Virus record (IMG/VR): IMGVR_UViG_3300035492_000012
Location: 1 to 39,727 of that record
Length of the DNA: 39,727 nt
Strand: one strand, 5' to 3'
Source of the DNA: a virus
Shown here: piece by piece, positions 16,110-39,727 of the stretch
Position numbering within the stretch: position 1 is the first letter of the stretch
Layout: the number at the start of each line of letters is the position of its first letter
Position numbers and translations under genes: made by a program
The notes under the pieces: model-generated
Seen by the model: the letters and a program-made list of their open reading frames with translations, nothing else
What the model was told of the DNA's origin: nothing
Database searches by the model: none

Positions 16110-16367
16110 TCAGTGGTTACGCGCTTTCAGCGCTTTGTTAATGCGAGCGGATTTGTCTTTGCCGCGTGCTGCTTTACTTCCGTTGGGCTGCCAAGCAGTG
16201 CCCAGCGTACTCCGACCTTCGCTATGGTACTGGGTATTCATAGCCTTGCGTGCTTTGCGAGCCTCGGGCGTATTCTCAATAGCCAACGCCTTGATGGTCG
16301 CAGCACGCTTAGCGATACCGGCGTAACGGCTAGCTTGGGCCTTGTGCTTTTCAGCGGGGGTCTGCAT
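16110..16367 (-). CDS. Hypothetical highly basic early protein (85 aa); the first gene downstream of the early promoters
   Basis: AGGAG 9 nt upstream of the ATG. Lys/Arg-rich throughout. Confidence 0.7.
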   Translation of the reverse strand: MQTPAEKHKAQASRYAGIAKRAATIKALAIENTPEARKARKAMNTQYHSEGRSTLGTAWQPNGSKAARGKDKSARINKALKARNH

Positions 16368-16776
16368 GGCAGTAACTCCTATCAGATGATTCAGGCAAGC
16401 GTACTCCGTTGAACGCGCTTGACTTGAAGCATCTCAGACAGTCTAGGTACTGGGGACCGGACCCCGCAAGGCTGGCGTTAGTTCGCCATAACCTGCCCGA
16501 CAATCCCTAGACTGTCACCATGCCCCACTGCACGACCGTGGACGGATGGCACCGCTCGACCCGATTCTATTATGGCAGCGGGTCTCAGCCTGCCAGCCCA
16601 TCTATAACGCCGGGGCCTTGCTTCACCTTGCCTTCCATGCGCCAGCCCGAAAGCCTTTGCACTCCAGCCGAGACATCCTGTCAAGGTGCCGATCATTATC
16701 GGGACAGTTTGCCTTGGGACTTCCAGCTTGCGCCTTGGTCCGCCAGTCCGGCCCGTTTGCCGTCTTGCATGGTGCC

Positions 16777-16805
16777 ATTCTAGCGACACCGCATCATCTT
16801 GTCAA
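16777..16805 (-). promoter_or_regulatory. Sigma70-type early promoter (TTGACA-17 nt-TAGAAT)
   Basis: Read on the minus strand: -35 at 16805..16800 and -10 at 16782..16777. It faces the early genes. Confidence 0.6.
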
Positions 16806-17075
16806 GCCTAATTTGTCCTGAATCAGTTGGCTAAGCTGAAGCCTTCTTATCTATAGGTCCGGACTGGGTACCAGAAGGCGGCTAATCGCTCCCCAGTCCG
16901 TAGGCTAGCACACGTATGTACTGCGCTAGCCTTGTGTTACCTGATGCCCGATCTTGCTTGGCTTGTCAAGCTACCAGCCTAGACCGGATCACTTGACGAC
17001 ATTGTGAGATGGGTTTGCTTTACGTCCTATACCCCGCCCGGACTTGGTAGCTCACAACGTCTTGCCATGTGCTGC

Positions 17076-17104
17076 ACTTTAGAGGATACCTAGTACCCTG
17101 TCAA
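17076..17104 (-). promoter_or_regulatory. Sigma70-type early promoter (TTGACA-17 nt-TAAAGT)
   Basis: -35 at 17104..17099 and -10 at 17081..17076. It shares the -10 context TAAAGTGC with the next promoter. Confidence 0.6.
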
Positions 17105-17166
17105 GCCTTTGGTAGGAAATTGTCATCCTACCGCAGTGCCCAGCGTTCCGTGCTGGTATGGTTCGC

Positions 17167-17195
17167 ACTTTACATAGGTTTTAGTAGGCTGTCAA
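17167..17195 (-). promoter_or_regulatory. Sigma70-type early promoter (TTGACA-17 nt-TAAAGT)
   Basis: -35 at 17195..17190 and -10 at 17172..17167. Confidence 0.6.
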
Positions 17196-17214
17196 CACAT
17201 TGTTTCAGGCCGTG

Positions 17215-17240
17215 GCTATAAAGTGCCATAATCTAGGAGA
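17215..17240 (+). promoter_or_regulatory. Inverted (plus-strand) copy of the candidate phage RNAP promoter
   Basis: GCTATAAAGTGCCATAATCTAGGAGA matches the minus-strand sequence at 37957..37932 at 23 of 26 positions. Confidence 0.4.
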
Positions 17241-17486
17241 AGTCCGCAGGGCTGCCCGCTAGGGCTGGCCGGTGGCGAACCGCGCTAGCCGGTAGGCTGG
17301 CAAGGTGCGGGTAGTGTGTCCAGTGGGGTACAGGTAGGATAGCCATAGGACCTGCATAGGATGCACATAGGATGACAGCGGGGTAGGTATAGGGATACGC
17401 ACAGGCAAAGGCGCCATAGGCAGCGTAGGCAAAGCATAGGCAAGCCGCACCAGAGTGCACACCGCAAGGTGGATGCCCATAGGATA
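17234..17486. repeat. Array of about 13 short TAGG-core direct repeats, mostly (C/G)(A/T)TAGG(A/C), with 10-11 bp phasing
   Basis: TAGG starts at 17234, 17260, 17293, 17335, 17346, 17357, 17368, 17384, 17390, 17417, 17426, 17437 and 17480. About one occurrence would be expected by chance. Confidence 0.85.
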
Positions 17487-17505
17487 CAGCATAGTACCGC
17501 ACCGA

Positions 17506-17533
17506 TTGACAGCAGCAAGCCAGCATGTACAAT
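17506..17533 (+). promoter_or_regulatory. Sigma70-like promoter on the plus strand (TTGACA-16 nt-TACAAT), pointing away from the early genes
   Basis: Hexamers read directly. No gene lies downstream on this strand. Confidence 0.45.
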
Positions 17534-17615
17534 ACACCACATGGCAAGGCATACCGCCGCGCGGTACTCAAGCTGCTGGGTACACTGTACCGCTGAAGAA
17601 AATGCAGATGCGGGG

Positions 17616-17643
17616 TTGACAGCCCCGCTGGATGGTGTACACT
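17616..17643 (+). promoter_or_regulatory. Sigma70-like promoter on the plus strand (TTGACA-16 nt-TACACT), pointing away from the early genes
   Basis: Hexamers read directly. The -10 lies within the second copy of the 12-mer GTACACTGTACC (17580..17591 and 17637..17648). Confidence 0.45.
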
Positions 17644-17847
17644 GTACCCATCGAAGCAGCGAGGGAGACGCACCGCCACAGACCCAGCACCCTGCCTACG
17701 GCAGAGGCCCAGTTTCCCACGGAGAACACCGCAGGCTGCCCAGAGCACCCGGCAGGGGGGAAGGTCGCGCGGTGATGGGTGGGAAGGCGGCTTGCATAGA
17801 CGCACCAAATTTAAGCGCCTATAGAACACGCCAAGCCACACGCACTA

Positions 17848-17922
17848 CCCACGCACAGACCACCCACGCACCAGCTCACACCACCCACAGAGCCTCCCAC
17901 AGAATCCCACAGGAGGCCACAG
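17848..17922. repeat. Array of CCCAC(A/G) short direct repeats immediately downstream of the last gene
   Basis: CCCAC at 17848, 17863, 17884, 17896 and 17906, plus GCCAC at 17916. The last four units are spaced 10-12 bp apart, and the plus strand here is C/A-rich. Confidence 0.8.
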
Positions 17923-17929
17923 TCAAACC

Positions 17930-18124
17930 TTACGCGCCAGCAGCATCCACCGCAGTCACAGCGGCCAGGGTCGCGGTGACCTGGGCATCGAACGCGGTGT
18001 TGTACTCGGCGCTCTGCGGTTGCTCATGGCCGCCTTGGGCGTGCTTCTGAGCCAGCACAGCGAGCTTGTACACTTCGTCGCGCAGGGCTTCTACTTCTTC
18101 ACGGGTTGCACTTGCAATAGCCAT
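17930..18124 (-). CDS. Hypothetical protein (64 aa); the last gene of the transcription unit
   Basis: AAAGGAA RBS, preceded by a TACTAC motif. Ala-rich and helical in appearance. Confidence 0.7.
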   Translation of the reverse strand: MAIASATREEVEALRDEVYKLAVLAQKHAQGGHEQPQSAEYNTAFDAQVTATLAAVTAVDAAGA

Positions 18125-19142: not shown

Positions 19143-19335
19143 GAGCCGCCCTCCGCTTCTCCCGCCAGAACTTGAAGGTCTCGTAAGCCTTCGGCAGCGC
19201 GTTCCACAGCAAGACCAGGGTGTACACCAGGGTCACTACAGCTACTACGTGGTTCAGTGTGATTGCCGAAGCCACTACCCCTCCCCAGGCAATACCACCT
19301 TTCAGGCTCTCTTGCCAGTAATTAAAATTAGTCAT
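19132..19335 (-). CDS. Holin (pinholin-like, two TM segments)
   Basis: 67 aa with two hydrophobic helices and a basic C-terminus (REKRRAARGD). Located directly upstream of the SAR endolysin. Confidence 0.75.
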   Translation of the reverse strand: MTNFNYWQESLKGGIAWGGVVASAITLNHVVAVVTLVYTLVLLWNALPKAYETFKFWREKRRAARGD

Positions 19336-21107
19336 CGGACTCTCCGTCGCAGCGCCTTCACGCTACTCTTTGGTTTCGCCCCGCGCTTCCCGTAACCCAT
19401 AGGGTCGTCTAGGAACTTGCGGGCTTCTTCCTTTTCACGATGCCGCTTCGCTTTATCCTCGTCAACGGCAAGGTGGTCCACGAGGCTGCGGCAGAGTTGC
19501 TCCAGCACATCTACTCGGTCATCCTTGGCCAGTGAGCCGCGATCCGTGGTGATGTTCTGTAGCTGGAACAGGCCGCTGTACTGCAGCCGCCGATCCATAG
19601 GGTATTGCTGTAGTAGCTCGATGTCCATATCAAGCGCCCGCTTGTGCAACACCAAGCGGTGCCGCTGCAGAATTGGACGAATAGTGTCGATGATACGACG
19701 CTCTTTCTGCCCGGTGGCGTTTGCATCGGTGATGCCAACACCCTCAACACGCTTCTTACCACGCTCGTCAAGGCCGTTGAAGTAGTTCTGGATAAGTCGC
19801 GTCACCGCACCAGCACCCATATTCTTCTCCACTACTACACGCTTGACGCTGAACTCTTTAACCACATCAACCAGCTTCTCCAGGTTGGCATCAGCAAAGC
19901 CGCCTCGGAAGCCACCCCAGGCTAGAACGTGCAGGTACGGACCAACCACACCGCCAACTGCGAATGCCAGTTCGTCCCCACCGTCGCTGGCAGGGTCTAC
20001 GCACATCACAATGTCGGTTAGAGGTCGGAACACCTCGGACATACTAGCTGGGCGATAGAACTCAGGCTTCAAGGTGCCCAGCTCTGGCGGCACTGGCCAT
20101 GCCAAGCGGGGGTCTGCTGCCCAAGTCAGCACCTCTGGTACAGAGGTAGGTGCGAAGTCCCCTACGATCAGGTCGCGGATTTTCAGCTGCTGACGCAAGG
20201 CATCCATCAACGCCGTGTTCAGCATAAACTGCAGCTCGAAGGTCTCAGGTCCTTGGTCAAGCTCTTTGTCGCACAGGTCTGCTTCATTGAAGCGATGCGG
20301 ATCGGTGGGCCATCCACGGCTACCGTCCAATCCTCCGCCAGTGCGGCAGCGGTCCCCGAGCATACCCATACGCTCGACGATACTCGGCGCAAGATGCTCG
20401 CCGTAAGCCTTCTGCTGCTTATCTGTGGGGAAGCGTCCAGGCCAGATACGCACAGCGAAGCCGCGCTGCGGGAGGCGGTTATAGATGCTATCCTTGGTCT
20501 GCGGGGTGCCCAGGTACATAATGCGCCCGTGCGTGCAGATACTGGTGAACTCTTTGGATAGCAGCTCCAAGTGCGACCGCTGCTGGGCAGTCAGGCCATT
20601 CTTGGTAGTCTCGATGTCGTCAGGAATCAGAACGTCCGCACGTAGCCCCTGCAGGGATGCTGTGATACCAATACAGTTCACACTTGCGGACTTGTCAATA
20701 CCTTTCAGGCTCCAATGCACATCGAACTCAACTGTCGATACTCGGTCTCCCGCGTACTTATCAGGGCGCAGATACTCCAGCTTATCCCACTTGTGGATCA
20801 AGCTGTGCATCAGCATCCCGTTCTCGTCGGCCTTGTCCTGCGCCCCGGAGATAAGGAGTACACGGCAGCTGGGTGCCTGTATCAAGGACCAGATACCGTA
20901 CAGGCAGGCAATGGTGCTCTTGGCCTCACCGCGCTGCGCCTCTGTCATTTGCTTGTCTGGACCGTACTGCATCCAGTCCGCAATATCTTCCTGCATCCAA
21001 GTGGTGTCGAAGCCGAGGAACGCCATAGCGTCTTTGCAGAACTCCCGGAACTCCGGGTAAAGGTCCCGCATTAACTTCGCACGCTCATAGCGTTCATCGA
21101 CTTTCAT
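19332..21107 (-). CDS. Terminase large subunit
   Basis: 591 aa, T7 gp19-like. ATPase motifs QRGEAKST and VLIPDDIET, with a C-terminal nuclease region. Confidence 0.92.
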   Translation of the reverse strand: MKVDERYERAKLMRDLYPEFREFCKDAMAFLGFDTTWMQEDIADWMQYGPDKQMTEAQRGEAKSTIACLYGIWSLIQAPSCRVLLISGAQDKADENGMLMHSLIHKWDKLEYLRPDKYAGDRVSTVEFDVHWSLKGIDKSASVNCIGITASLQGLRADVLIPDDIETTKNGLTAQQRSHLELLSKEFTSICTHGRIMYLGTPQTKDSIYNRLPQRGFAVRIWPGRFPTDKQQKAYGEHLAPSIVERMGMLGDRCRTGGGLDGSRGWPTDPHRFNEADLCDKELDQGPETFELQFMLNTALMDALRQQLKIRDLIVGDFAPTSVPEVLTWAADPRLAWPVPPELGTLKPEFYRPASMSEVFRPLTDIVMCVDPASDGGDELAFAVGGVVGPYLHVLAWGGFRGGFADANLEKLVDVVKEFSVKRVVVEKNMGAGAVTRLIQNYFNGLDERGKKRVEGVGITDANATGQKERRIIDTIRPILQRHRLVLHKRALDMDIELLQQYPMDRRLQYSGLFQLQNITTDRGSLAKDDRVDVLEQLCRSLVDHLAVDEDKAKRHREKEEARKFLDDPMGYGKRGAKPKSSVKALRRRVR

Positions 21108-21516: not shown

Positions 21517-21936
21517 TCATTTGTCATTCTCCAGCGCTTTTTGCGCGTCGCTTTCTTCCATTCCATGCCTCACCATAGCACGGACTGCAAACTCAGCGGA
21601 TGAGTAGGGCTGGCCATTCTGGTATCCGTACCTGAGCTGGGCCTTATAGCACGCAAGTTCCATCTGTATTCTGATGGCCTTGATTCGGTAGAGGGCGTGC
21701 TGCACCCATGGTGCGGTGAGACCGATGCCGTACAGCTCTGCAATCACAAAATGACCAAGTGTCGAGGCTGCGACGATGGTGCCAATCACACAATACCACC
21801 ACTGCCTAACATGCAGTTTTTCGTGCTCTAGCAGACCGTGATCGTTCCGCGCAGACGAGCTTATTTTGATACGCCACATGCGCTGATTGCCTGGTGGGTT
21901 GAGTCCGTCTTTATAGCTCAGGGAGTAGTATTGCAT
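21517..21936 (-). CDS. Hypothetical HExxH-motif membrane protein (139 aa)
   Basis: LLEHEKLHVRQ followed by the hydrophobic segment YCVIGTIVAASTLGHFVIAELYGIGL. It lies in the low-GC block shared with the tailspike C-terminus. Confidence 0.7.
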   Translation of the reverse strand: MQYYSLSYKDGLNPPGNQRMWRIKISSSARNDHGLLEHEKLHVRQWWYCVIGTIVAASTLGHFVIAELYGIGLTAPWVQHALYRIKAIRIQMELACYKAQLRYGYQNGQPYSSAEFAVRAMVRHGMEESDAQKALENDK

Positions 21937-22000: not shown

Positions 22001-24379
22001 TTAAACAATCGCTCTCTTAACTAGCAGGTTAATCCTAATGTTAGAGGAGTTCGGAGCCGTTAAGTAAAAAACTAATTCAGTACCAACCACATCTACAGCA
22101 ATGTCGTAACTTGCAGGGGATGTACTCTCTTTCTTCGCTACATTAACAAATACAGGCTGGCCCCCTGATATAGTACACAGTACCTTAGTGTACACGGCCA
22201 GCCCAGCACCAGATGTTGTACCCCGTGTCCATATTTCAACCTCAAGCCAGACTCCCTCAATAACGGGCGCGTTTCCAATAAAATCGCTCAAAGTGTACGT
22301 TACCTTCTTGGCCCCGCTAGGTAACGTCTCTCCTGCTTTGTTACGAAAATTAGAGGAATAGTCTCTAAATAAAGGAAGGGGTATTGCCACCCCAAGGCCA
22401 TACACAACCTCTGCAAGCAAACCCGTTGCCTGACTTTCGGTTGTCGTTACGTAATTAGTACGTAGAATGGCGTTTAGTGCGGGGGATAGCGGGTGTATCT
22501 CCATGGGGGTAGCATATAGATCGTTAGGGTTCTCTTGCGGCAAGTTATTGCCTAGCGAACGTAAGACGTTCTCAGATATAACGCTGCCTGTTTGCAATAC
22601 GTCCATGAACATAAGAGGTGCTAGCGTAGATCCATCCGCATAATCCCCTACATACCCGACTTCTATGTTGTTCCTAGTCGTGTTTACCCCTGCTGTTGCA
22701 GTAAGATGTACAGCGGCAAAATTAGTCTGAGCACATTGGATGTAAAATTTGTTCTGTCCGCCGCCGTTGATGGTAGCTATGGCTGCCCTTGTTGCCGTCG
22801 TGTTATTGGAAAATTCAAAGTGGCATCCGTTAGCATCAGCAGTTGAATCATCGCTGCGGGATAAAAACAGAGACGTACCTATGCAATACATGACGTTTAT
22901 ATTAGTAATTTTGCTAGCGTTGCAGTTGCTATAAATCCCTCCGCCGTCCACACTCCTATTAGTACCTTTTGCGCTATTATCCACAATAACGCCGATCACA
23001 AAACATCCTGGGACTCTATCGTCAACACCGGGGTATATCTGGTAGGGTACGCGCCCTCCCTCTACAGTAACCGATTCTAATGACGCATAGCTATTGCCCC
23101 CAACACCCCTAGCAAAAAATTGATCGCCTACAATTTTCTGGTTAGTTAATACCGCAGGATAATTATCAGTACTACCCGACCCACTTACACAAATGTTGTA
23201 TACACCCGCTACTGTCCACTTAAACCTATATAAGTAATCGTTGGGGGATTTCATCACACCTATTGGGTTATTGTGGAAGGTAATAGGTACACCTCCGTCA
23301 AATATAACCATGCGCCCGATAGGATTTGTTTGTGCTTGGGCTATGTCATAGCTAGTCCAAACCACCCCTTGTGCCGTCAGAGGCCAGCCAGCGGATTCAT
23401 CCGTAACCCTTTTGCCCACATAAAAACCTAAGGCAGTCCCTGTTGATGACCTATTGCTAATTCGTGTGGGAGTCAGAATCTTCCTTACGGAATTAATTAA
23501 TACCTTTGAATTTTCATGGTCCCAAAAAGTAGTTCTAAGTGCTGCGTCAAATGCTCCCCACGAGTCATATTCTGGTACGAGCATGTTTGTATCGTTTCTC
23601 GCGCCAAACCATAAAACATTAAGCGGCAATGCATCCGCATTCATCATCACAAAGCAGCCAGTGCCTGTATCTGTTGATTCCCACCATCCTGATTGGCCGG
23701 GTGCACTAGTATGAGACGGATCTAAAATTGTTCCGCCGTTATGGTTCACCTTAGAATATGTTGGGTCATACTGATAAAAAGCGTGTTCGATAGGTAAATC
23801 GGAATAAAAAGATTTTACCAGATACCGCAAATCCTCCCGCCTCGCACTCTCTGGAATAGCCAACAAATCAGCGATACTATCAACCGCCACAATCCCACGT
23901 CCCAAAATCGCCGCCCCCTTAGCAGGGTCGGTGGGGTTGGAGAGGTCGGACTTCAATTGGGCGTTCACATCAGGGTCGAAAACTTCTTCCAACACATCCA
24001 TCCGCGCATCGAAAGTCGCAGTAGCAGTTAGCGCCTCATTCGCGATGCCTTGAGTATCATTCACAGCTTCCTGCATGACGAACAGCAGCTGGCGATTGTT
24101 TGCATCGACGTACCTTGGGAGAAAAGGTGCTCCCAGGTTGAACTCGTACTGCAGTTGCTCACCTGGGCTGTTCCGGTAGATGCGAACCTCAGCCCCGTCA
24201 GCAGGGGCCTCCGCGAACTCAATAGTCGATGCTGTAACGTAGGAGAACGGCGTAGCAACGCCGTCCACCTCAGCAAACACACCAGTGTCTTTTAGGTAGG
24301 GGAAGGTGAAATTGAACTGTGTAGTAACGCCATCACCAATCAAAGTTACTTCTGTAGCAGGCACCTGTGCCATACTCAA
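22001..24379 (-). CDS. Tail fibre/tailspike: T7 gp17-like N-terminal adaptor plus a probable beta-helix polysaccharide depolymerase domain
   Basis: The N-terminus (GDGVTTQFNFTFPYL...VDGV...RIYRNSP) resembles the T7 tail fibre N-domain. Later, LNVLWFGARNDTN resembles the start of Pectate_lyase_3 domains. The remainder is rich in G, N, S and T. Confidence 0.85.
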   Translation of the reverse strand: MSMAQVPATEVTLIGDGVTTQFNFTFPYLKDTGVFAEVDGVATPFSYVTASTIEFAEAPADGAEVRIYRNSPGEQLQYEFNLGAPFLPRYVDANNRQLLFVMQEAVNDTQGIANEALTATATFDARMDVLEEVFDPDVNAQLKSDLSNPTDPAKGAAILGRGIVAVDSIADLLAIPESARREDLRYLVKSFYSDLPIEHAFYQYDPTYSKVNHNGGTILDPSHTSAPGQSGWWESTDTGTGCFVMMNADALPLNVLWFGARNDTNMLVPEYDSWGAFDAALRTTFWDHENSKVLINSVRKILTPTRISNRSSTGTALGFYVGKRVTDESAGWPLTAQGVVWTSYDIAQAQTNPIGRMVIFDGGVPITFHNNPIGVMKSPNDYLYRFKWTVAGVYNICVSGSGSTDNYPAVLTNQKIVGDQFFARGVGGNSYASLESVTVEGGRVPYQIYPGVDDRVPGCFVIGVIVDNSAKGTNRSVDGGGIYSNCNASKITNINVMYCIGTSLFLSRSDDSTADANGCHFEFSNNTTATRAAIATINGGGQNKFYIQCAQTNFAAVHLTATAGVNTTRNNIEVGYVGDYADGSTLAPLMFMDVLQTGSVISENVLRSLGNNLPQENPNDLYATPMEIHPLSPALNAILRTNYVTTTESQATGLLAEVVYGLGVAIPLPLFRDYSSNFRNKAGETLPSGAKKVTYTLSDFIGNAPVIEGVWLEVEIWTRGTTSGAGLAVYTKVLCTISGGQPVFVNVAKKESTSPASYDIAVDVVGTELVFYLTAPNSSNIRINLLVKRAIV

Positions 24380-27300
24380 TCTCCTCGAATAGCGTCAATG
24401 AGCAGCGCGGTGCCCGGTAGTAGCGAAACTCCGGGAACAACCATAGTCGCACTCTTAACCAAATCAGCGGTTCCCTCACGGAACTCGCCAGTCATAAGCC
24501 CACCCAGACCACGCCCTGCGGTAGGTGCGGCATCCAGCACGCCGGTTAGCGGCACAGAGAATCCGCCACGCCCGCCAGTCAATCCAATGATACCCGCCGC
24601 GTCAGCAGCAAGGCCCAGTCCGGCGGTGTACCCAATACCTTTAGCCAGGATATTTTGCAAGCCTTCCTCGGATAGGTCCAGATCACCTTTACGCGCCTCG
24701 TTCAGCGCTACCATCATAGATGTGAGCGGATACTGGAAAGCCAGCAAGGTAGCCAGCGCACCGATACCGCCTTGGTGCAGCGTGCCACGCAGCAGCTTGT
24801 TGTGCGCAAGGCCCACGAATGCGCGGAACTGGCCTAGCACTTGACCTACTGCGGAGCGGCCCAGCAAGCGAGACCCAATCCCCTGCCCACTGCGGGAGAA
24901 GATCACAGCATCATCCATTATGCGCAGAGCCACGTCCATAACGTCTGAGATATCCTCTCGACGCCATGCGGCCCAGTTCATCTGCTTCGCATTCCCCCTA
25001 GTATATGTCACTTTATCTAGGGATCGCTGCACTCGCCTCCACACTTCATCAGTGAGACCGTACTGACGCAGCAGCTCCAAATCCTTAGCGCTACCCTTGA
25101 ATGCTCTTGCGAACGTATTCAGGGCAAGGTTGGCATTCATCCGAGACTGGTGCGCATGAACGAACTTCATGGCGTTCAGGTACGGTACAGCTTGCTTGCC
25201 TGCGTGGAGCAGCCTATCGAAGGCGGTATCCTGGCTCGACAAGTTCACATCATGCTGGCGCAACCAGGGACGGATACGCACGTCTCTGGCCAAGTCCACA
25301 CCCAACACAGTGCGCAGTTCATCGGCTAGGTCTGGGTCCTTTGCTGCGTCTTGCAACACCTTGCGCACACCGGGGAAAGTCCGCAGGAACTCGCTCATGG
25401 TGCGCACTGCGCCGTAGCGATGTGCTACAGTTGCATAGTCTGCAACCTGCCATAGCCCCGAGGCGCTAAGCATAGTGGCGTCTGCTATGCTCTTCAAGCG
25501 CTGCGCACCTTGCCCTAAGATGTTAGCCTCCGGGCGAAGACCTGTGAAGTCAGACAGCAGCCCATCCAAAGCCAGCATCTGATCGCGGCGGGCCTGTTCA
25601 GGCAGACCTTTCAATGTGTCTGCATACTGCCGCTTAAAGGCTTCGATACTCGCATCATCTCCACCGATACCCGCCTTAGCCAAGGCACTCCGACCAGACA
25701 TCACCTGGACGTAGTTGTCTGCCAACCGGCCCAGATCAGTGTCAATCATATCCGTCATTCGGAAGGTGCTGCCATCCGCGTTACGGATGCCTACAGTCAT
25801 ATCCAGCGGGATACGGTCCTTAGCGTACTTAACCTGCCCAGCTTCGTCGAGGTTCTGCTCTACGCGGCCCATAATAGATTGCACGCGAGCATCGCTGATG
25901 CCACTCTCTTTGAGCATAGCACGTAGCATCTCAGTGTCTGTCTTGCCGAGCGTTCCGAAGAACTCGATACCTTCGTTACGCAAGCGTGCCTGTGCCCGGT
26001 CGTAGATCGCGCCTCCAATCAAACGAGCGGCTTCGTTGTCTATCCCCGGCATACCACGTCGAGCAGCTTCGGAGATAAGGTCTACCACCTCTTTGCGAGA
26101 GCGGCTGGTTACTGCGGCAGCGTTCCAGCTGCGGTGAAAGTAGCCTTGACGAGGCTTGAACTCCTCAAAGCCACGAAGCCCAGCATCACGCGCAATCTCG
26201 CCCATACGGTTAGACATTTGCTCGTACACATCTGCCAGCCGCTGCACCCGCCCGTGAACTGCGCCCGGTATCGACTGTCCGTACTTGTTCCAGTACGTGT
26301 CTCGGCGGATCAGCTCCTCTGCAACCTGAGCTTCCAGATTATCTCTGGCATCCATGTACCGCCCTGTGCGGTCGAACTTGCGCTGTAGCCAACTGAAACC
26401 ATCCTCTGCTAGAGTCTTCTCCAACAGGTCGTCGTACTGCTTACGCCAACCGTCCATCTCGTTGAACATTAGGCGCTGGTTAGAAGCAGCGTTGCCTGCG
26501 CCGAACAGATCAGCGCGGCGTACTGGATCGTCTACAAGCTGCTTCAACAGCTCAGCACGCTCAGTAGCACCTGCAGCCTGATTCAACCAGAGCAGGTCTA
26601 CCTCTGTGGTGAACTCATTCACTGTAGAGGCTAATTTGCTCGGATTAGCCCATGTAGGCACATCCGGAGAGATGTCCCCAGGCGTGCCAGATACGTCAAC
26701 TCGTCGGGCACTCCCGCCAAGCAACGCCCCAATACCACCCCCAATAGCCGCGCTCAGCAGGTAATCCAAGCTGGATACTTCTTTACCGGCCACGTCCGCT
26801 GCCGCCAGCGGGGCTACTGTCCCAGCACCTACAGCTACGCCGGTTGCCAATCGGCCCAGACGCAGGGCCTTGGTAGTGCCGAAGGTCGCGTAGTCTGTAA
26901 GCAGCGTGAGCGGGTCTAGCATACCGATCAAGGCCATGCCGCCGTGCTGGCTAAGGATACGTTGACGCTCCTGCGCATCTGCAGCCTCGGAAGCGCGGAA
27001 GTGCAGTTCGTTAAGGGTGCCCGCATTAGCGAGCTGCAGCTGAGTTTCTCGATTGTTCTCCAGACCGTACTCGTCCAGGATACGCCCCATGTGCTGCGTC
27101 GGGTCGAAGCTGGGATCGTAGTCCTTAAAAGGCTCTTCCAGCTGCTCGGCCAAGAGCCGACCCACCCAGGCCGACTCCGACTCCTGCACTACAGCGCCGA
27201 AAACCTCGCCAGCGGTACGTGCCTCTGCCTCAATGTCCGAGGCCAGTGCGGCCTCACGTTGAGCAGCTGCAGGCTGCACCACATCTTGCAGGATAGCACC

Positions 27301-37931: not shown

Positions 37932-37957
37932 TCTCCTAGTATATGTCACTTTATAGC
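37932..37957 (-). promoter_or_regulatory. Candidate phage RNAP promoter at the RNAP/structural-module boundary
   Basis: The minus strand reads GCTATAAAGTGACATATACTAGGAGA. A 20-nt exact repeat occurs at 25016..24997, and the GTGACA core resembles the SP6 promoter ATTTAGGTGACACTATAG. Confidence 0.55.
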
Positions 37958-39727
37958 TCAGCAGAAAAAGAACCGGCTACTGAGCACTTCTCGGATGTTG
38001 AAATCTCCTCGTAGTGGGGTCTCCACATCCTGCCCCAAATCCCGCAGAAGCTCTGCGAGTGGGTCATACTCCGCGTACAGGTCCACGAACGCTTCCCGGA
38101 TATGCTGATGCATACGATCTACATCGCTTGGGTGTGTCCCAAAGCTGTCGTGGATACAAACCATACTCAAACCGTCTGCCTGCATACGCTCAGCCACCAT
38201 ACTGAGGTGTGTTGCGTCGAGGCTGTGAATCAAGTTAGGGCTGATGCTGTTCTGCGTGCGGCGAGGATTCAGCTCGTCTGAGGTATCCCGGACCACAACC
38301 TTGCTCAGGCCGAGGCTGCGGATCGGAACCCGCTTCTCCACCTGCTTTCTGGAATCCATACCGACCAGCAGGCCGAAGCGCGTCTTCCACGTCAGGGTAT
38401 GCGATGTGCCGTGCGCCCTGGCCCGCTCACGCAACCAGCGCATACACGCTGCCGCCGCAGGTACAGTGGCCTCGATGCTTGAGAAGATCACGTCAGCCGC
38501 GTAGTTAGCCATCGCGATAACAGACGCAGCCTCGTGCCGAAAGCCAGTATCATCTAACTGCGATGCGATGTCCAGAGCTACGTTACGCTTCGTCGCACCG
38601 TATACGTAGGTCATCACAGGCTTCTTTACCATGCTGCGGGGCATATCCAGGTCTAGCCATAGCTGCGCACACAGTTGGTACTTGTGCAGCGGATTCGCTG
38701 CGTCCTTACGGAACTGCGCCTGCGCTACCTCTCCTACGCGGGTGTAGATGTCAGCCTTGCTTCCAGTGCAGTCCAGCAGGTTTGTGTACTTGGCACCAAC
38801 CGGGTCTCGTAGAATTGCCGAGAAGTGCTGCAATCCTGAACAGGTCGCATCCATGTGGATTGGTAGCCCCGTGCGATACGTCTTAGGATCGCCACTAGCA
38901 TAAGCAGCGGCCAACTCGCGCACAGCAGCAAGCGCACTCAGCGGTGCATCTGCAGCGCGGTACAGGTCTGAGTCTTCCGGGGCCACTGCGTCAGCGGCCA
39001 GCGTATCCCATCGCTCATCTACCCAAGCGACCCGCTCTGGGAAGTCGGCCTTATCAAAGCCGAAGCAGTTCGCAATATGCACCTTCAACCAGAACACGCC
39101 GCGACTACCAAGTGCCTTCTTCTCTGCGAAGTGTAGCACCGAGCGGGTCCCGTCAGTCCCTTGAGGATTCGGGGAGCCGGAGTAGTACATCCGTTGCCGG
39201 AAGTCTAGGAACACCGGAAACCAGACTTCCCGGTCGCGCAATTCGCGGAGAATCTTGACTTGGCCAGCCGCTTCGATGACGGAGCCTTTACGGCGCAGGT
39301 CTGATGTGTACCACTCGGCCATCTGTCGCTTCCAGTTCGTGAAGATAGCAGCCTGCTCTTCGGTGGCCTGGAGAAACTCAAACCCGTCTGGGAGTGGGAA
39401 GGCAGGTTTAGGATGCTCATGCCTGCGCGGCATACCGAGAACTTCCTGCCCCAACTCCCACAGATGCACCATGCAATCTACCGCAGTCGGCTCCATGTGG
39501 AATGGCGTAGACTGTAGGTAGTTCACCACATTCAGCAGACGTGGACTCTCAGCTATGCTCTCGTACACTTGGCGACGTACTGCGGGACGGGCCGATGTGA
39601 TCACCAGCGGGCGGCTGGCCTCGTTCGTATAGTATCCTCCATCTAGGGCATTAGTCCACGGCTTAGGTGGACACACCATCGGGTTAGCTACAGTGTGCAG
39701 CCACGGCAGCTTGTTCAGCAGCTCCAT
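37958..39727 (-). CDS. Single-subunit DNA-directed RNA polymerase, C-terminal 589 aa (the N-terminus is at 781..128 across the junction)
   Basis: PIHMDATCSGLQH, MTYVYGAT and CIHDSFGTH parallel the T7 RNAP catalytic motifs. Confidence 0.95.
   Translation of the reverse strand: MELLNKLPWLHTVANPMVCPPKPWTNALDGGYYTNEASRPLVITSARPAVRRQVYESIAESPRLLNVVNYLQSTPFHMEPTAVDCMVHLWELGQEVLGMPRRHEHPKPAFPLPDGFEFLQATEEQAAIFTNWKRQMAEWYTSDLRRKGSVIEAAGQVKILRELRDREVWFPVFLDFRQRMYYSGSPNPQGTDGTRSVLHFAEKKALGSRGVFWLKVHIANCFGFDKADFPERVAWVDERWDTLAADAVAPEDSDLYRAADAPLSALAAVRELAAAYASGDPKTYRTGLPIHMDATCSGLQHFSAILRDPVGAKYTNLLDCTGSKADIYTRVGEVAQAQFRKDAANPLHKYQLCAQLWLDLDMPRSMVKKPVMTYVYGATKRNVALDIASQLDDTGFRHEAASVIAMANYAADVIFSSIEATVPAAAACMRWLRERARAHGTSHTLTWKTRFGLLVGMDSRKQVEKRVPIRSLGLSKVVVRDTSDELNPRRTQNSISPNLIHSLDATHLSMVAERMQADGLSMVCIHDSFGTHPSDVDRMHQHIREAFVDLYAEYDPLAELLRDLGQDVETPLRGDFNIREVLSSRFFFC
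39601..39727. repeat. Second copy of the 127-bp contig-end overlap
   Basis: Identical to 1..127. Confidence 0.95.

Follow-up and report, generated by a model that had tools for sequence, protein, structure and literature searches.

A probable concatemer junction and left-end control region of a phiKMV/LKA1-type phage, with a predicted terminal repeat and a candidate leader RNA

The region between the late and the early genes

The IMG/VR virus record IMGVR_UViG_3300035492_000012 comprises 39,727 nucleotides (nt), referred to here as the window, and all its long open reading frames (ORFs) lie on the minus strand. The last late gene and the first early gene are separated by a region of 1.56 kb, positions 16368 to 17929, which is the subject of the present analysis. 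It is very likely the concatemer junction and left-end control region of the linear, terminally redundant genome of a phage of the phiKMV/LKA1 type, within the T7 supergroup. It is probably both the site of the packaging cut and the place where the host polymerase starts early transcription. The features of the region and of its surroundings are collected in Table 1; rightward denotes the direction of the genes, on the minus strand, and leftward the opposite one, on the plus strand.

An earlier note, made from the sequence alone, had seen no convincing gene between the stop codon at 17930 and the ATG at 16367. The mechanically called ORFs of the region, of 103 amino acids (aa) (16478-16789, minus strand), 202 aa (17233-17841, minus strand) and 193 aa (17469-18050, plus strand), have no match in PHROG and Pfam searches, whereas the flanking genes do match, and the second early gene matches phrog_1448. 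The same note had described a CCCAC array, a TAGG array, two outward-facing sigma70-like promoters, three strong early-facing promoters of the TTGACA-17 type and an inverted phage-promoter-like element, and each of these was recovered by counting. On the minus strand, GTGGG is found five times in 17925-17840 (0.11 expected, P 1e-7) and CCTA[TC] ten times in 17490-17330 (0.27 expected, P 5e-13). A consensus scan returned seven sigma70-like sites where 0.9 are expected, and among them three rightward and two leftward ones are strong; besides the promoters of Table 1, TTGACA hexamers with poor -10 regions stand at 16969 and 16684. The phage-promoter-like element is a real repeat, a 24-mer of the form TATAAAGTG(A/C)CATA..CTAGGAGA that resembles T7-type promoters and has three copies (0 expected), one of them on the opposite strand.

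Table 1. Features of the 1.56-kb region and related sites in the window (limits of the repeat are predicted)
Feature	Position	Strand	Remarks
Last late gene	17930-18124	-	64 aa; phrog_7375 (weak); follows endolysin, Rz and Rz1; same length as phiKMV gp48
G/T-rich short-repeat array (CTGTGGG / GTGCGTGGGT units)	17840-17925	-	just upstream of predicted left end
Pre-terminus block: AAATTT (17812-17807) and 22-nt spacer	17785-17812	-	conserved (alignment A2)
Predicted direct terminal repeat, one collapsed copy	17420-17784	-	would start with TCCCACCC at 17784 (or 17785); C6 run at 17760-17755
Leftward sigma70-like promoter	17616-17643	+	TTGACA-16-TACACT; inside predicted repeat
Leftward sigma70-like promoter	17506-17533	+	TTGACA-16-TACAAT, 11/12 matches; inside predicted repeat
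C-rich short-repeat array (ATCCTAT / TGCCTA units)	17330-17490	-	partly 11-nt spacing; straddles predicted right boundary
Leftward 24-mer copy (TATAAAGTGCCATAATCTAGGAGA)	17217-17240	+	points at predicted repeat
Early rightward sigma70-like promoter	17167-17195	-	TTGACA-17-TAAAGT
Early rightward sigma70-like promoter	17076-17104	-	TTGACA-17-TAAAGT
Early rightward sigma70-like promoter	16777-16805	-	TTGACA-17-TAGAAT, 11/12 matches
Leader RNA motif, ~80 nt	16519-16600	-	H-type pseudoknot, then two hairpins
Long imperfect hairpin (GACAGTCTAGG...CCTAGACTGTC)	16437-16516	-	z = -2.8; between RNA motif and first gene
First early gene	16110-16367	-	85-aa basic protein; phrog_5722, E 7e-12
Third 24-mer copy	24994-25017	-	inside 1006-aa ORF, ~600 nt upstream of low-GC 792-aa ORF
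Reference 24-mer copy	37932-37955	-	directly after RNA polymerase stop codon (37958)

The left-end signature and the predicted terminal repeat

The position of the packaging cut is suggested by a short signature at 17812-17755 on the minus strand, composed of AAATTT, 22 nt, TCCCAC, 18 nt and a run of six C residues. Downstream of their last gene, LKA1 and phiKMV have 113-144 bp of G-rich repeats, an A/T block (GAATTT or CAATTTT), 21 nt and then the annotated start of the terminal repeat, which opens with TCCCAC or TCCCGAC and whose C5 run begins 25 nt in. The spacer after the A/T block measures 21 nt in LKA1, phiKMV, L003 and L006 versus 22 nt in the window, where the junction reads TTAAATTTGGTGCGTCTATGCAAGCCGCCT before the predicted cut and TCCCACCCATCACCGCGCGACCTTCCCCCC after it. 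The T7 record reads CCATAAAAATCTGAGTGACTA and TCTCACAGTGTACGGACCTAAAGTTCCCCCATAGGGGG on the two sides of its cut, with an A/T block, the cut itself, TCTCAC and 25 nt from the cut to the C5 run. The signature of the window thus recurs where the annotated repeats of LKA1 and phiKMV begin, and T7 shows it where its terminal repeat begins.

When the loose pattern TCCC-N17-24-CCCCC was scanned on the gene strand of each locus, it gave a single match per locus, always at the junction, in the window (17784), LKA1, phiKMV, HHBS14_1 and five IMG/VR relatives; in LKA1 and phiKMV this match is the exact annotated repeat start. The cut also follows the last stop codon at a comparable distance (LKA1, 113 bp; phiKMV, 144 bp; the window, with the predicted cut, 145 bp), and this interval of the window consists of 41% G and 9% A. 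LKA1 and phiKMV carry equivalent G-rich arrays before their annotated repeats. On these comparisons we predict the left end of the genome at 17784, or at 17785 if the 21-nt/25-nt register is kept.

The right boundary is predicted with less certainty, at ~17445-17420, where it would coincide with one of three TGCCTA copies (17442, 17431 and 17422) and give a repeat of ~340-365 bp. In LKA1 and phiKMV the annotated right boundary is the first (C)CTTGCCT motif, inside the C-rich array, and the first such motif of the window is at 17444. The annotated direct terminal repeats are 298 bp long in LKA1, 414 bp in phiKMV and 472 bp in LUZ19. The earlier note had placed the repeat and the cut sites within 17490-17850: the predicted left cut does fall inside this interval, but the predicted right boundary lies 45-70 bp outside it.

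Other limits for the repeat, either an end near 17490, before the CCTAT array, or an extension to ~17330 that would take in the whole array, are less likely. The right-boundary motif is repeated and the alignment ambiguous, and L002, the nearest metagenomic relative, has a contig end that aligns to ~17480. That contig end is possibly a mere assembly break, however, and the annotated right boundary of LKA1 and phiKMV lies within, not before, the C-rich array, the first corresponding motif of the window being the one at 17444.

Several observations weigh against the terminal-repeat reading, or at least against its details. The right boundary depends on a short motif, TGCCTA, present in three copies, and the alignment at this boundary (A7), with 45% column identity, is too poor to choose among them. 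The candidate repeat is present once, not twice, in the circularised assemblies, with the termini inferred. When the entire 1.56-kb region was compared by blastn with 50,697 phage records, only a ~90-nt RNA element described below gave matches, and direct alignment around the left boundary gave weak matches, of 64-68%, to three IMG/VR relatives; because whole-region nucleotide similarity is absent outside the RNA element, the evidence for the boundaries is at the level of motifs rather than of alignment. The TCCC-N-CCCCC pattern alone would be expected by chance a few times per 40 kb, according to our own rough estimate, and its force comes from its position and its conserved flanks. Finally, leftward sigma70-like promoters are absent from LKA1, L004 and L006, and no transcription start site (TSS) among the LUZ19 promoters compared (P001-P009) matches the leftward sigma70-like sites.

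A few other potential guides to the termini were set aside. The records of phi-2, MR5, pphageT12 and HHBS14_1 were rejected as boundary calibrators since they do not start at physical ends or have over-called ORFs at the junction. The contigs of the metagenomic relatives L001, L002 and L003 end 33, 309 and 282 nt after the predicted repeat start, which is suggestive and was not used as evidence. The phiKMV nick consensus, CGAC-N5-CCTACTCCGG, found no convincing match.

Two side observations concern repeated sequences. Inside the predicted terminal repeat, the near-palindrome GGGTACACTGTACC occurs in two copies 57 bp apart, at 17577-17590 and 17637-17650. The upper copy and the -10 hexamer of the leftward promoter at 17616-17643 overlap, and a related TGTACA core is found at ~17530; the copies resemble operators or a site at which a dimeric protein would bind. 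In phi-2 (L012), the record closes (42527-43144) with a 105-bp unit that is repeated in tandem 5.8 times and contains embedded 17-mers, which sets it well apart from the junctions of the other relatives, and the start of the record is apparently not a physical end.

Candidate promoters of the phage polymerase

The three copies of the 24-mer TATAAAGTGACATATACTAGGAGA in the window, which agree within 3 mismatches, follow the layout described by Putzeys et al. (2024): one stands after the polymerase gene, one in the structural region and one, antisense, at the left end, in correspondence to P007/P008, P009 and P001 of LUZ19. The 1006-aa ORF that holds the third copy corresponds in size and position to the LKA1 internal virion protein. 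LKA1 shares the post-polymerase and the antisense left-end copies: its own motif, AATTGTCGCACTAGCATGAG, is found after the RNA polymerase gene, at 17847, and leftward from 476 to 452. A leftward phage-promoter-like copy stands in the same place in L004 and L006. The motif itself differs, being TATAAAGTGACATATACTAGGAGA in the window, GgtTATGTCACacACAnnGG in Phikmvvirus and AATTGTCGCACTAGCATGAG in LKA1. Since the layout is the same but the window lacks the Phikmvvirus motif, the phage is not a Phikmvvirus.

In LUZ19, the experimentally mapped P001 (TSS 732, minus strand) bears the phage-specific motif, and its transcripts cross the repeat and continue into the genome unit before it; 15 other Phikmvvirus species were reported to have equivalent antisense promoters, and antisense transcription was proposed to block read-through into the early genes (PMC10914365). 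The leftward transcripts of LUZ19 have mapped 3' ends at 457 and 141 (supplement 10.1101/2023.10.13.562163). Position 457 still belongs to the 472-bp repeat, 15 nt short of its right boundary, and the 3' end mapped there could reflect a pause or termination site, a template discontinuity due to junction processing, or a mapping artefact. In the T7 record, the ATCTGTT signal begins directly after the terminal repeat. A coupling of leftward transcription to junction processing in the phage studied here is conceivable. Judged by sequence, the antisense left-end phage promoter, described so far for Phikmvvirus, would extend to LKA1 and to the present, more distant lineage, and its presence in both argues for a conserved function.

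A separate observation concerns the annotation of LKA1 (L033). Three copies of AATTGTCGCACTA..ATGA, at 17847-17871, ~21832-21850 and 476 to 452, stand where promoters of a phage polymerase are typically placed. The GenBank record annotates other sites, such as 2757-2786, as 'putative phage LKA1 specific promoters', and these are probably mis-assigned.

Comparison with the Krylovirinae and with T7

The structure of the region is ordinary and well precedented, and its closest layout is that of phiKMV, LUZ19 and LKA1 rather than that of T7 itself. These members of the Krylovirinae and the window share the following order: a small late gene, a G-rich array of ~110-145 bp, the signature and the repeat; then C-rich repeats over the right boundary, a leftward phage promoter and three to five sigma70 promoters; and finally a long untranslated leader and a small first ORF. 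Repeats of 300-470 bp are found in these three phages, and the ~340-365 bp predicted for the window falls between LKA1 and phiKMV/LUZ19. Rightward sigma70-like sites are clustered likewise in LKA1 (three to four), phiKMV (four), L006 (four) and L004 (two). In LUZ19, the early TSSs were mapped at 950, 1029, 1182 and 1284 (PMC10914365; supplement 10.1101/2023.10.13.562163), and P002-P005 are active in E. coli reporter assays (PMC10914365). The leftward sigma70-like sites have a single counterpart in the phiKMV repeat (146 to 119, TTGACA-16-TAGAAT) versus two in the window.

The junction order that the earlier note had given for T7 agrees with the T7 record, and the window follows the same order. 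The record shows a repeat array, the 160-bp terminal repeat, a CCTAAAG array with A0 (224), phiOL (405), A1-A3 (498/626/750) and gene 0.3 (925). T7 and the window have in common the A/T-rich block, the cut, TC(T/C)CAC and 25 nt to the C5 run, as well as arrays on both sides of the repeat, a leftward host-type promoter, a phage promoter, three strong host promoters and a structured leader. The analogies drawn by the earlier note with phiOL and A0 hold in part. A phage-type element does stand at the place of phiOL, but phiOL is rightward whereas the element of the window is leftward, and its true counterpart is the antisense P001 of LUZ19 and its Phikmvvirus equivalents (PMC10914365). Leftward host-type promoters are also present, but inside the predicted repeat, whereas A0 stands to the right of the T7 repeat. 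The units of the arrays are different too (CCTAAAG in T7 versus GTGGG and CCTAT in the window), the predicted repeat is about twice the length of that of T7, T7 is devoid of the pseudoknotted leader motif, and the RNA polymerase gene is not early in the phiKMV/LKA1 group, unlike in T7.

Lineage, assemblies and alternative readings

The phage represents a new lineage of the phiKMV/LKA1 group (Krylovirinae-like) in the T7 supergroup (Autographiviridae). Its large terminase subunit (TerL; 591 aa, 19332-21107) is of the T7 type (Pfam PF22530, Terminase-T7_RNaseH-like). The window also encodes a single-subunit RNA polymerase and holds candidate cognate promoters for it, short-repeat arrays that flank the predicted repeat and a host-type promoter cluster to the right of that repeat. 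TerL is 62-64% identical to that of the Pseudomonas phages MR5, pphageT12, LKA1 and phi-2 and ~57% identical to that of phiKMV-type phages (phikF77). As identity to the nearest Krylovirinae, LKA1 included, reaches only 62-64%, the phage probably constitutes a separate genus. Over the whole window, DNA similarity to known phages is confined to a few replication genes of LKA1 and phiKMV-type phages.

Besides the choice of limits discussed above, three alternatives to a packaging junction were considered. The arrays, the leftward promoters and the A/T-rich block might mainly form a transcription-primed replication origin instead of packaging signals. Origins in T7 are promoter-associated, and LKA1, L004, L006 and the Phikmvviruses have the leftward phage promoter conserved in this place. 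Arrays of CCTGG/CTTGCCT in LKA1 and phiKMV and of CCTAAAG in T7 occupy the same place as the C-rich array of the window, and arrays flank the annotated ends of LKA1 and phiKMV as well as the T7 terminal repeat, which ties them to termini. A mainly replicative role is rather improbable, although the two roles are not mutually exclusive.

Much less probable still is headful or otherwise circularly permuted packaging, with no fixed terminal repeat and a region devoted to transcription control only. The ends of the window overlap exactly over 127 bp (1-127 identical to 39601-39727) inside the single-subunit RNA polymerase gene, the same N-terminal peptide being read at both ends, so that the window is a circularised assembly of a 39,600-bp unit; this agrees with the premise of the earlier note that the repeat had been collapsed to one copy. 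The same phage is present in Logan SRR11791770 (39,630 nt), JGI 3300035494 (39,758 nt) and SRR11791835, and in every one of them the junction is 100% identical and read through. These assemblies are circular and without variation, and hence hold no information on ends. A permuted genome would likewise give circles unbroken through the junction, but assemblers routinely collapse short repeats into circular contigs. Furthermore, the T7-type TerL shares 62-64% identity with its counterparts in LKA1 and other Krylovirinae, direct terminal repeats are annotated in LKA1, phiKMV and LUZ19, and the left-end signature is present at the expected distance from the last gene.

It is hardly credible that an ORF of the region is a real gene: the candidate, a 77/97-aa ORF at 17259-17552, is annotated as a 77-aa product by gene callers in other assemblies, and similar ORFs are annotated at the junctions of MR5 and HHBS14_1, but it has no PHROG or Pfam match, is made of the CCTAT repeat array and overlaps the predicted repeat boundary.

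Proposed packaging and transcription

Under the concatemer-junction reading, the terminase would cut replicated concatemers immediately 5' of TCCCACCC (17784/5, minus strand). The next ~340-365 bp, to ~17445-17420, would be duplicated, so that each virion DNA, of ~39.95 kb, would bear a copy at both ends. On ejection the left end would enter first, and the host RNA polymerase would start at 17195, 17104 and 16805 and transcribe a leader of ~410-830 nt together with the early genes. Later, the phage polymerase would use the 24-mers after its own gene and in the structural region, and would also fire leftward from 17240 across the repeat. Such transcription might keep late transcripts from running on into the early genes, or help to process the junction.

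The analysis provides a prediction of the left end of this genome at the nucleotide level (17784/5) and of an approximate repeat. Because the left end is predicted to the nucleotide, the circular contig can be re-linearised and correctly annotated, and spurious ORFs at the junction can be dropped. From T7 through the phiKMV/LKA1-type phages, one short signature, consisting of an A/T block, ~21 nt, TC(C/T)C and a C5 run 25 nt after the cut, marks the start of the repeat. It could serve to place the termini in many metagenomic Autographiviridae contigs that were assembled as circles.

A structured RNA in the early leader

The only nucleotide similarity of the region to known phages, in the blastn search mentioned above, is that of the RNA element, at 16619-16521. 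In Erwinia phage Micant, Salmonella phage KKP 3828, Enterobacter phage SDFMU_Pec and Vibrio phage BA6 the matching DNA is non-coding and precedes the first early ORF by ~55-65 nt. Further BLAST matches lie in Klebsiella Drulisviruses and other VPp1-type Vibrio phages, in which the first annotated ORF is found ~120-145 nt downstream. The conserved segment overlaps the leader RNA motif of Table 1, whose helices are P1 (TGGCAG/CTGCCA), P2 (GACCCG/CGGGTC) and two hairpins, CGG/CCG and an invariant CCAC...GTGG. Pattern scans yielded 20 distinct copies, nearly all of them in phage records or contigs of ~42-51 kb (the motif loci are the window, L009, L064, L018-L021, L028 and L034-L055). The carriers are phages or phage-like contigs only, belonging to the Krylovirinae, the Slopekvirinae and relatives that infect Erwinia and Vibrio, and a scan of 185,579 bacterial species genomes gave 0 matches. 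False positives in coding regions, which arose from the first search pattern (GCCAT.A.AGAA....GT.GAGCGGT) and from part of the second (L022-L027, L029-L031), were discarded.

In the structure proposed on an alignment of 85 columns, P1 (columns 6-11/23-28) and P2 (columns 17-22/38-43) interlock as an H-type pseudoknot and are followed by P3 and the invariant P4. Helix cells are paired in 93.8% of cases versus 38-48% when the partners are slid, compensatory changes are seen at 13 pairs, including all six of P2, and no shuffle attains the observed values. A covariance model recovered divergent copies in phiKMV (L009, 1391-1485) and LUZ19 (L064, 1402-1496), so that the motif is common to these two phages and the window, and found none in LKA1, L004, L006 and T7. 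The LUZ19 copy lies within the experimentally mapped early leader transcripts. Rfam 15 was searched without a match in the window region (E<=1), and in five further carriers it returned nothing over the motif (E<=10). By eye, the motif fits neither a hammerhead core nor the strand order of ribozymes like that of hepatitis delta virus, and no Rfam ribozyme or riboswitch matched it.

Wherever the context is readable, the motif belongs to the untranslated leader, after the host-type early promoters and before the first ORF. In most carriers checked, this ORF encodes a basic protein of 63-85 aa belonging to the loose family M[GK]Y..KL..QF.GL..LSG..L.KRRD.LN.AG...ATFS (the ORFs compared were those of the window, L018, L019, L021, L039, L045, L048, L049, L054 and L055). 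The downstream ORFs of L028 and L040 are outside this family, and the PHROG families of the post-motif ORFs differ (5722, 9286 and 33973). The association suggests that motif and small basic protein form an RNA-plus-protein module.

We tentatively propose, with slightly less than even confidence, that 16600-16519 is an undescribed class of cis-acting structured RNA and that leftward transcription is perhaps coupled to junction processing. As a hypothesis only, the motif would act in cis on the long untranslated early leader, which it might protect from being terminated or processed prematurely, or it might serve the downstream protein as an operator. It could make the host RNA polymerase resistant to termination across the leader, or serve as the operator of the small basic protein. 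Cis-acting leader RNAs of other phage early operons include the put RNAs of HK022 and the leader pseudoknot of T4 gene 32. The analogy is that of a compact structured RNA in an untranslated leader below strong early promoters; the fold of the motif, an H-type pseudoknot and two hairpins, is unlike these RNAs. Among the regulatory RNAs of phage early operons the pseudoknotted leader motif would be a new candidate, and it is open to study in LUZ19, whose transcripts have already been mapped.

The imperfect hairpin that follows the motif (16516-16437) occupies the position of the RNase III site R0.3 of T7 and T3 (PMC3276506 for T3), a likeness by position.

Other observations in the window

No tRNAs were found, and a terminator scan of the region gave nothing meaningful. 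The 792-aa ORF at 22001-24379, before the small-terminase region, would by its position be the tail-fibre gene. Its GC content is ~46%, versus 57-59% elsewhere, which suggests a recently exchanged receptor-binding module.

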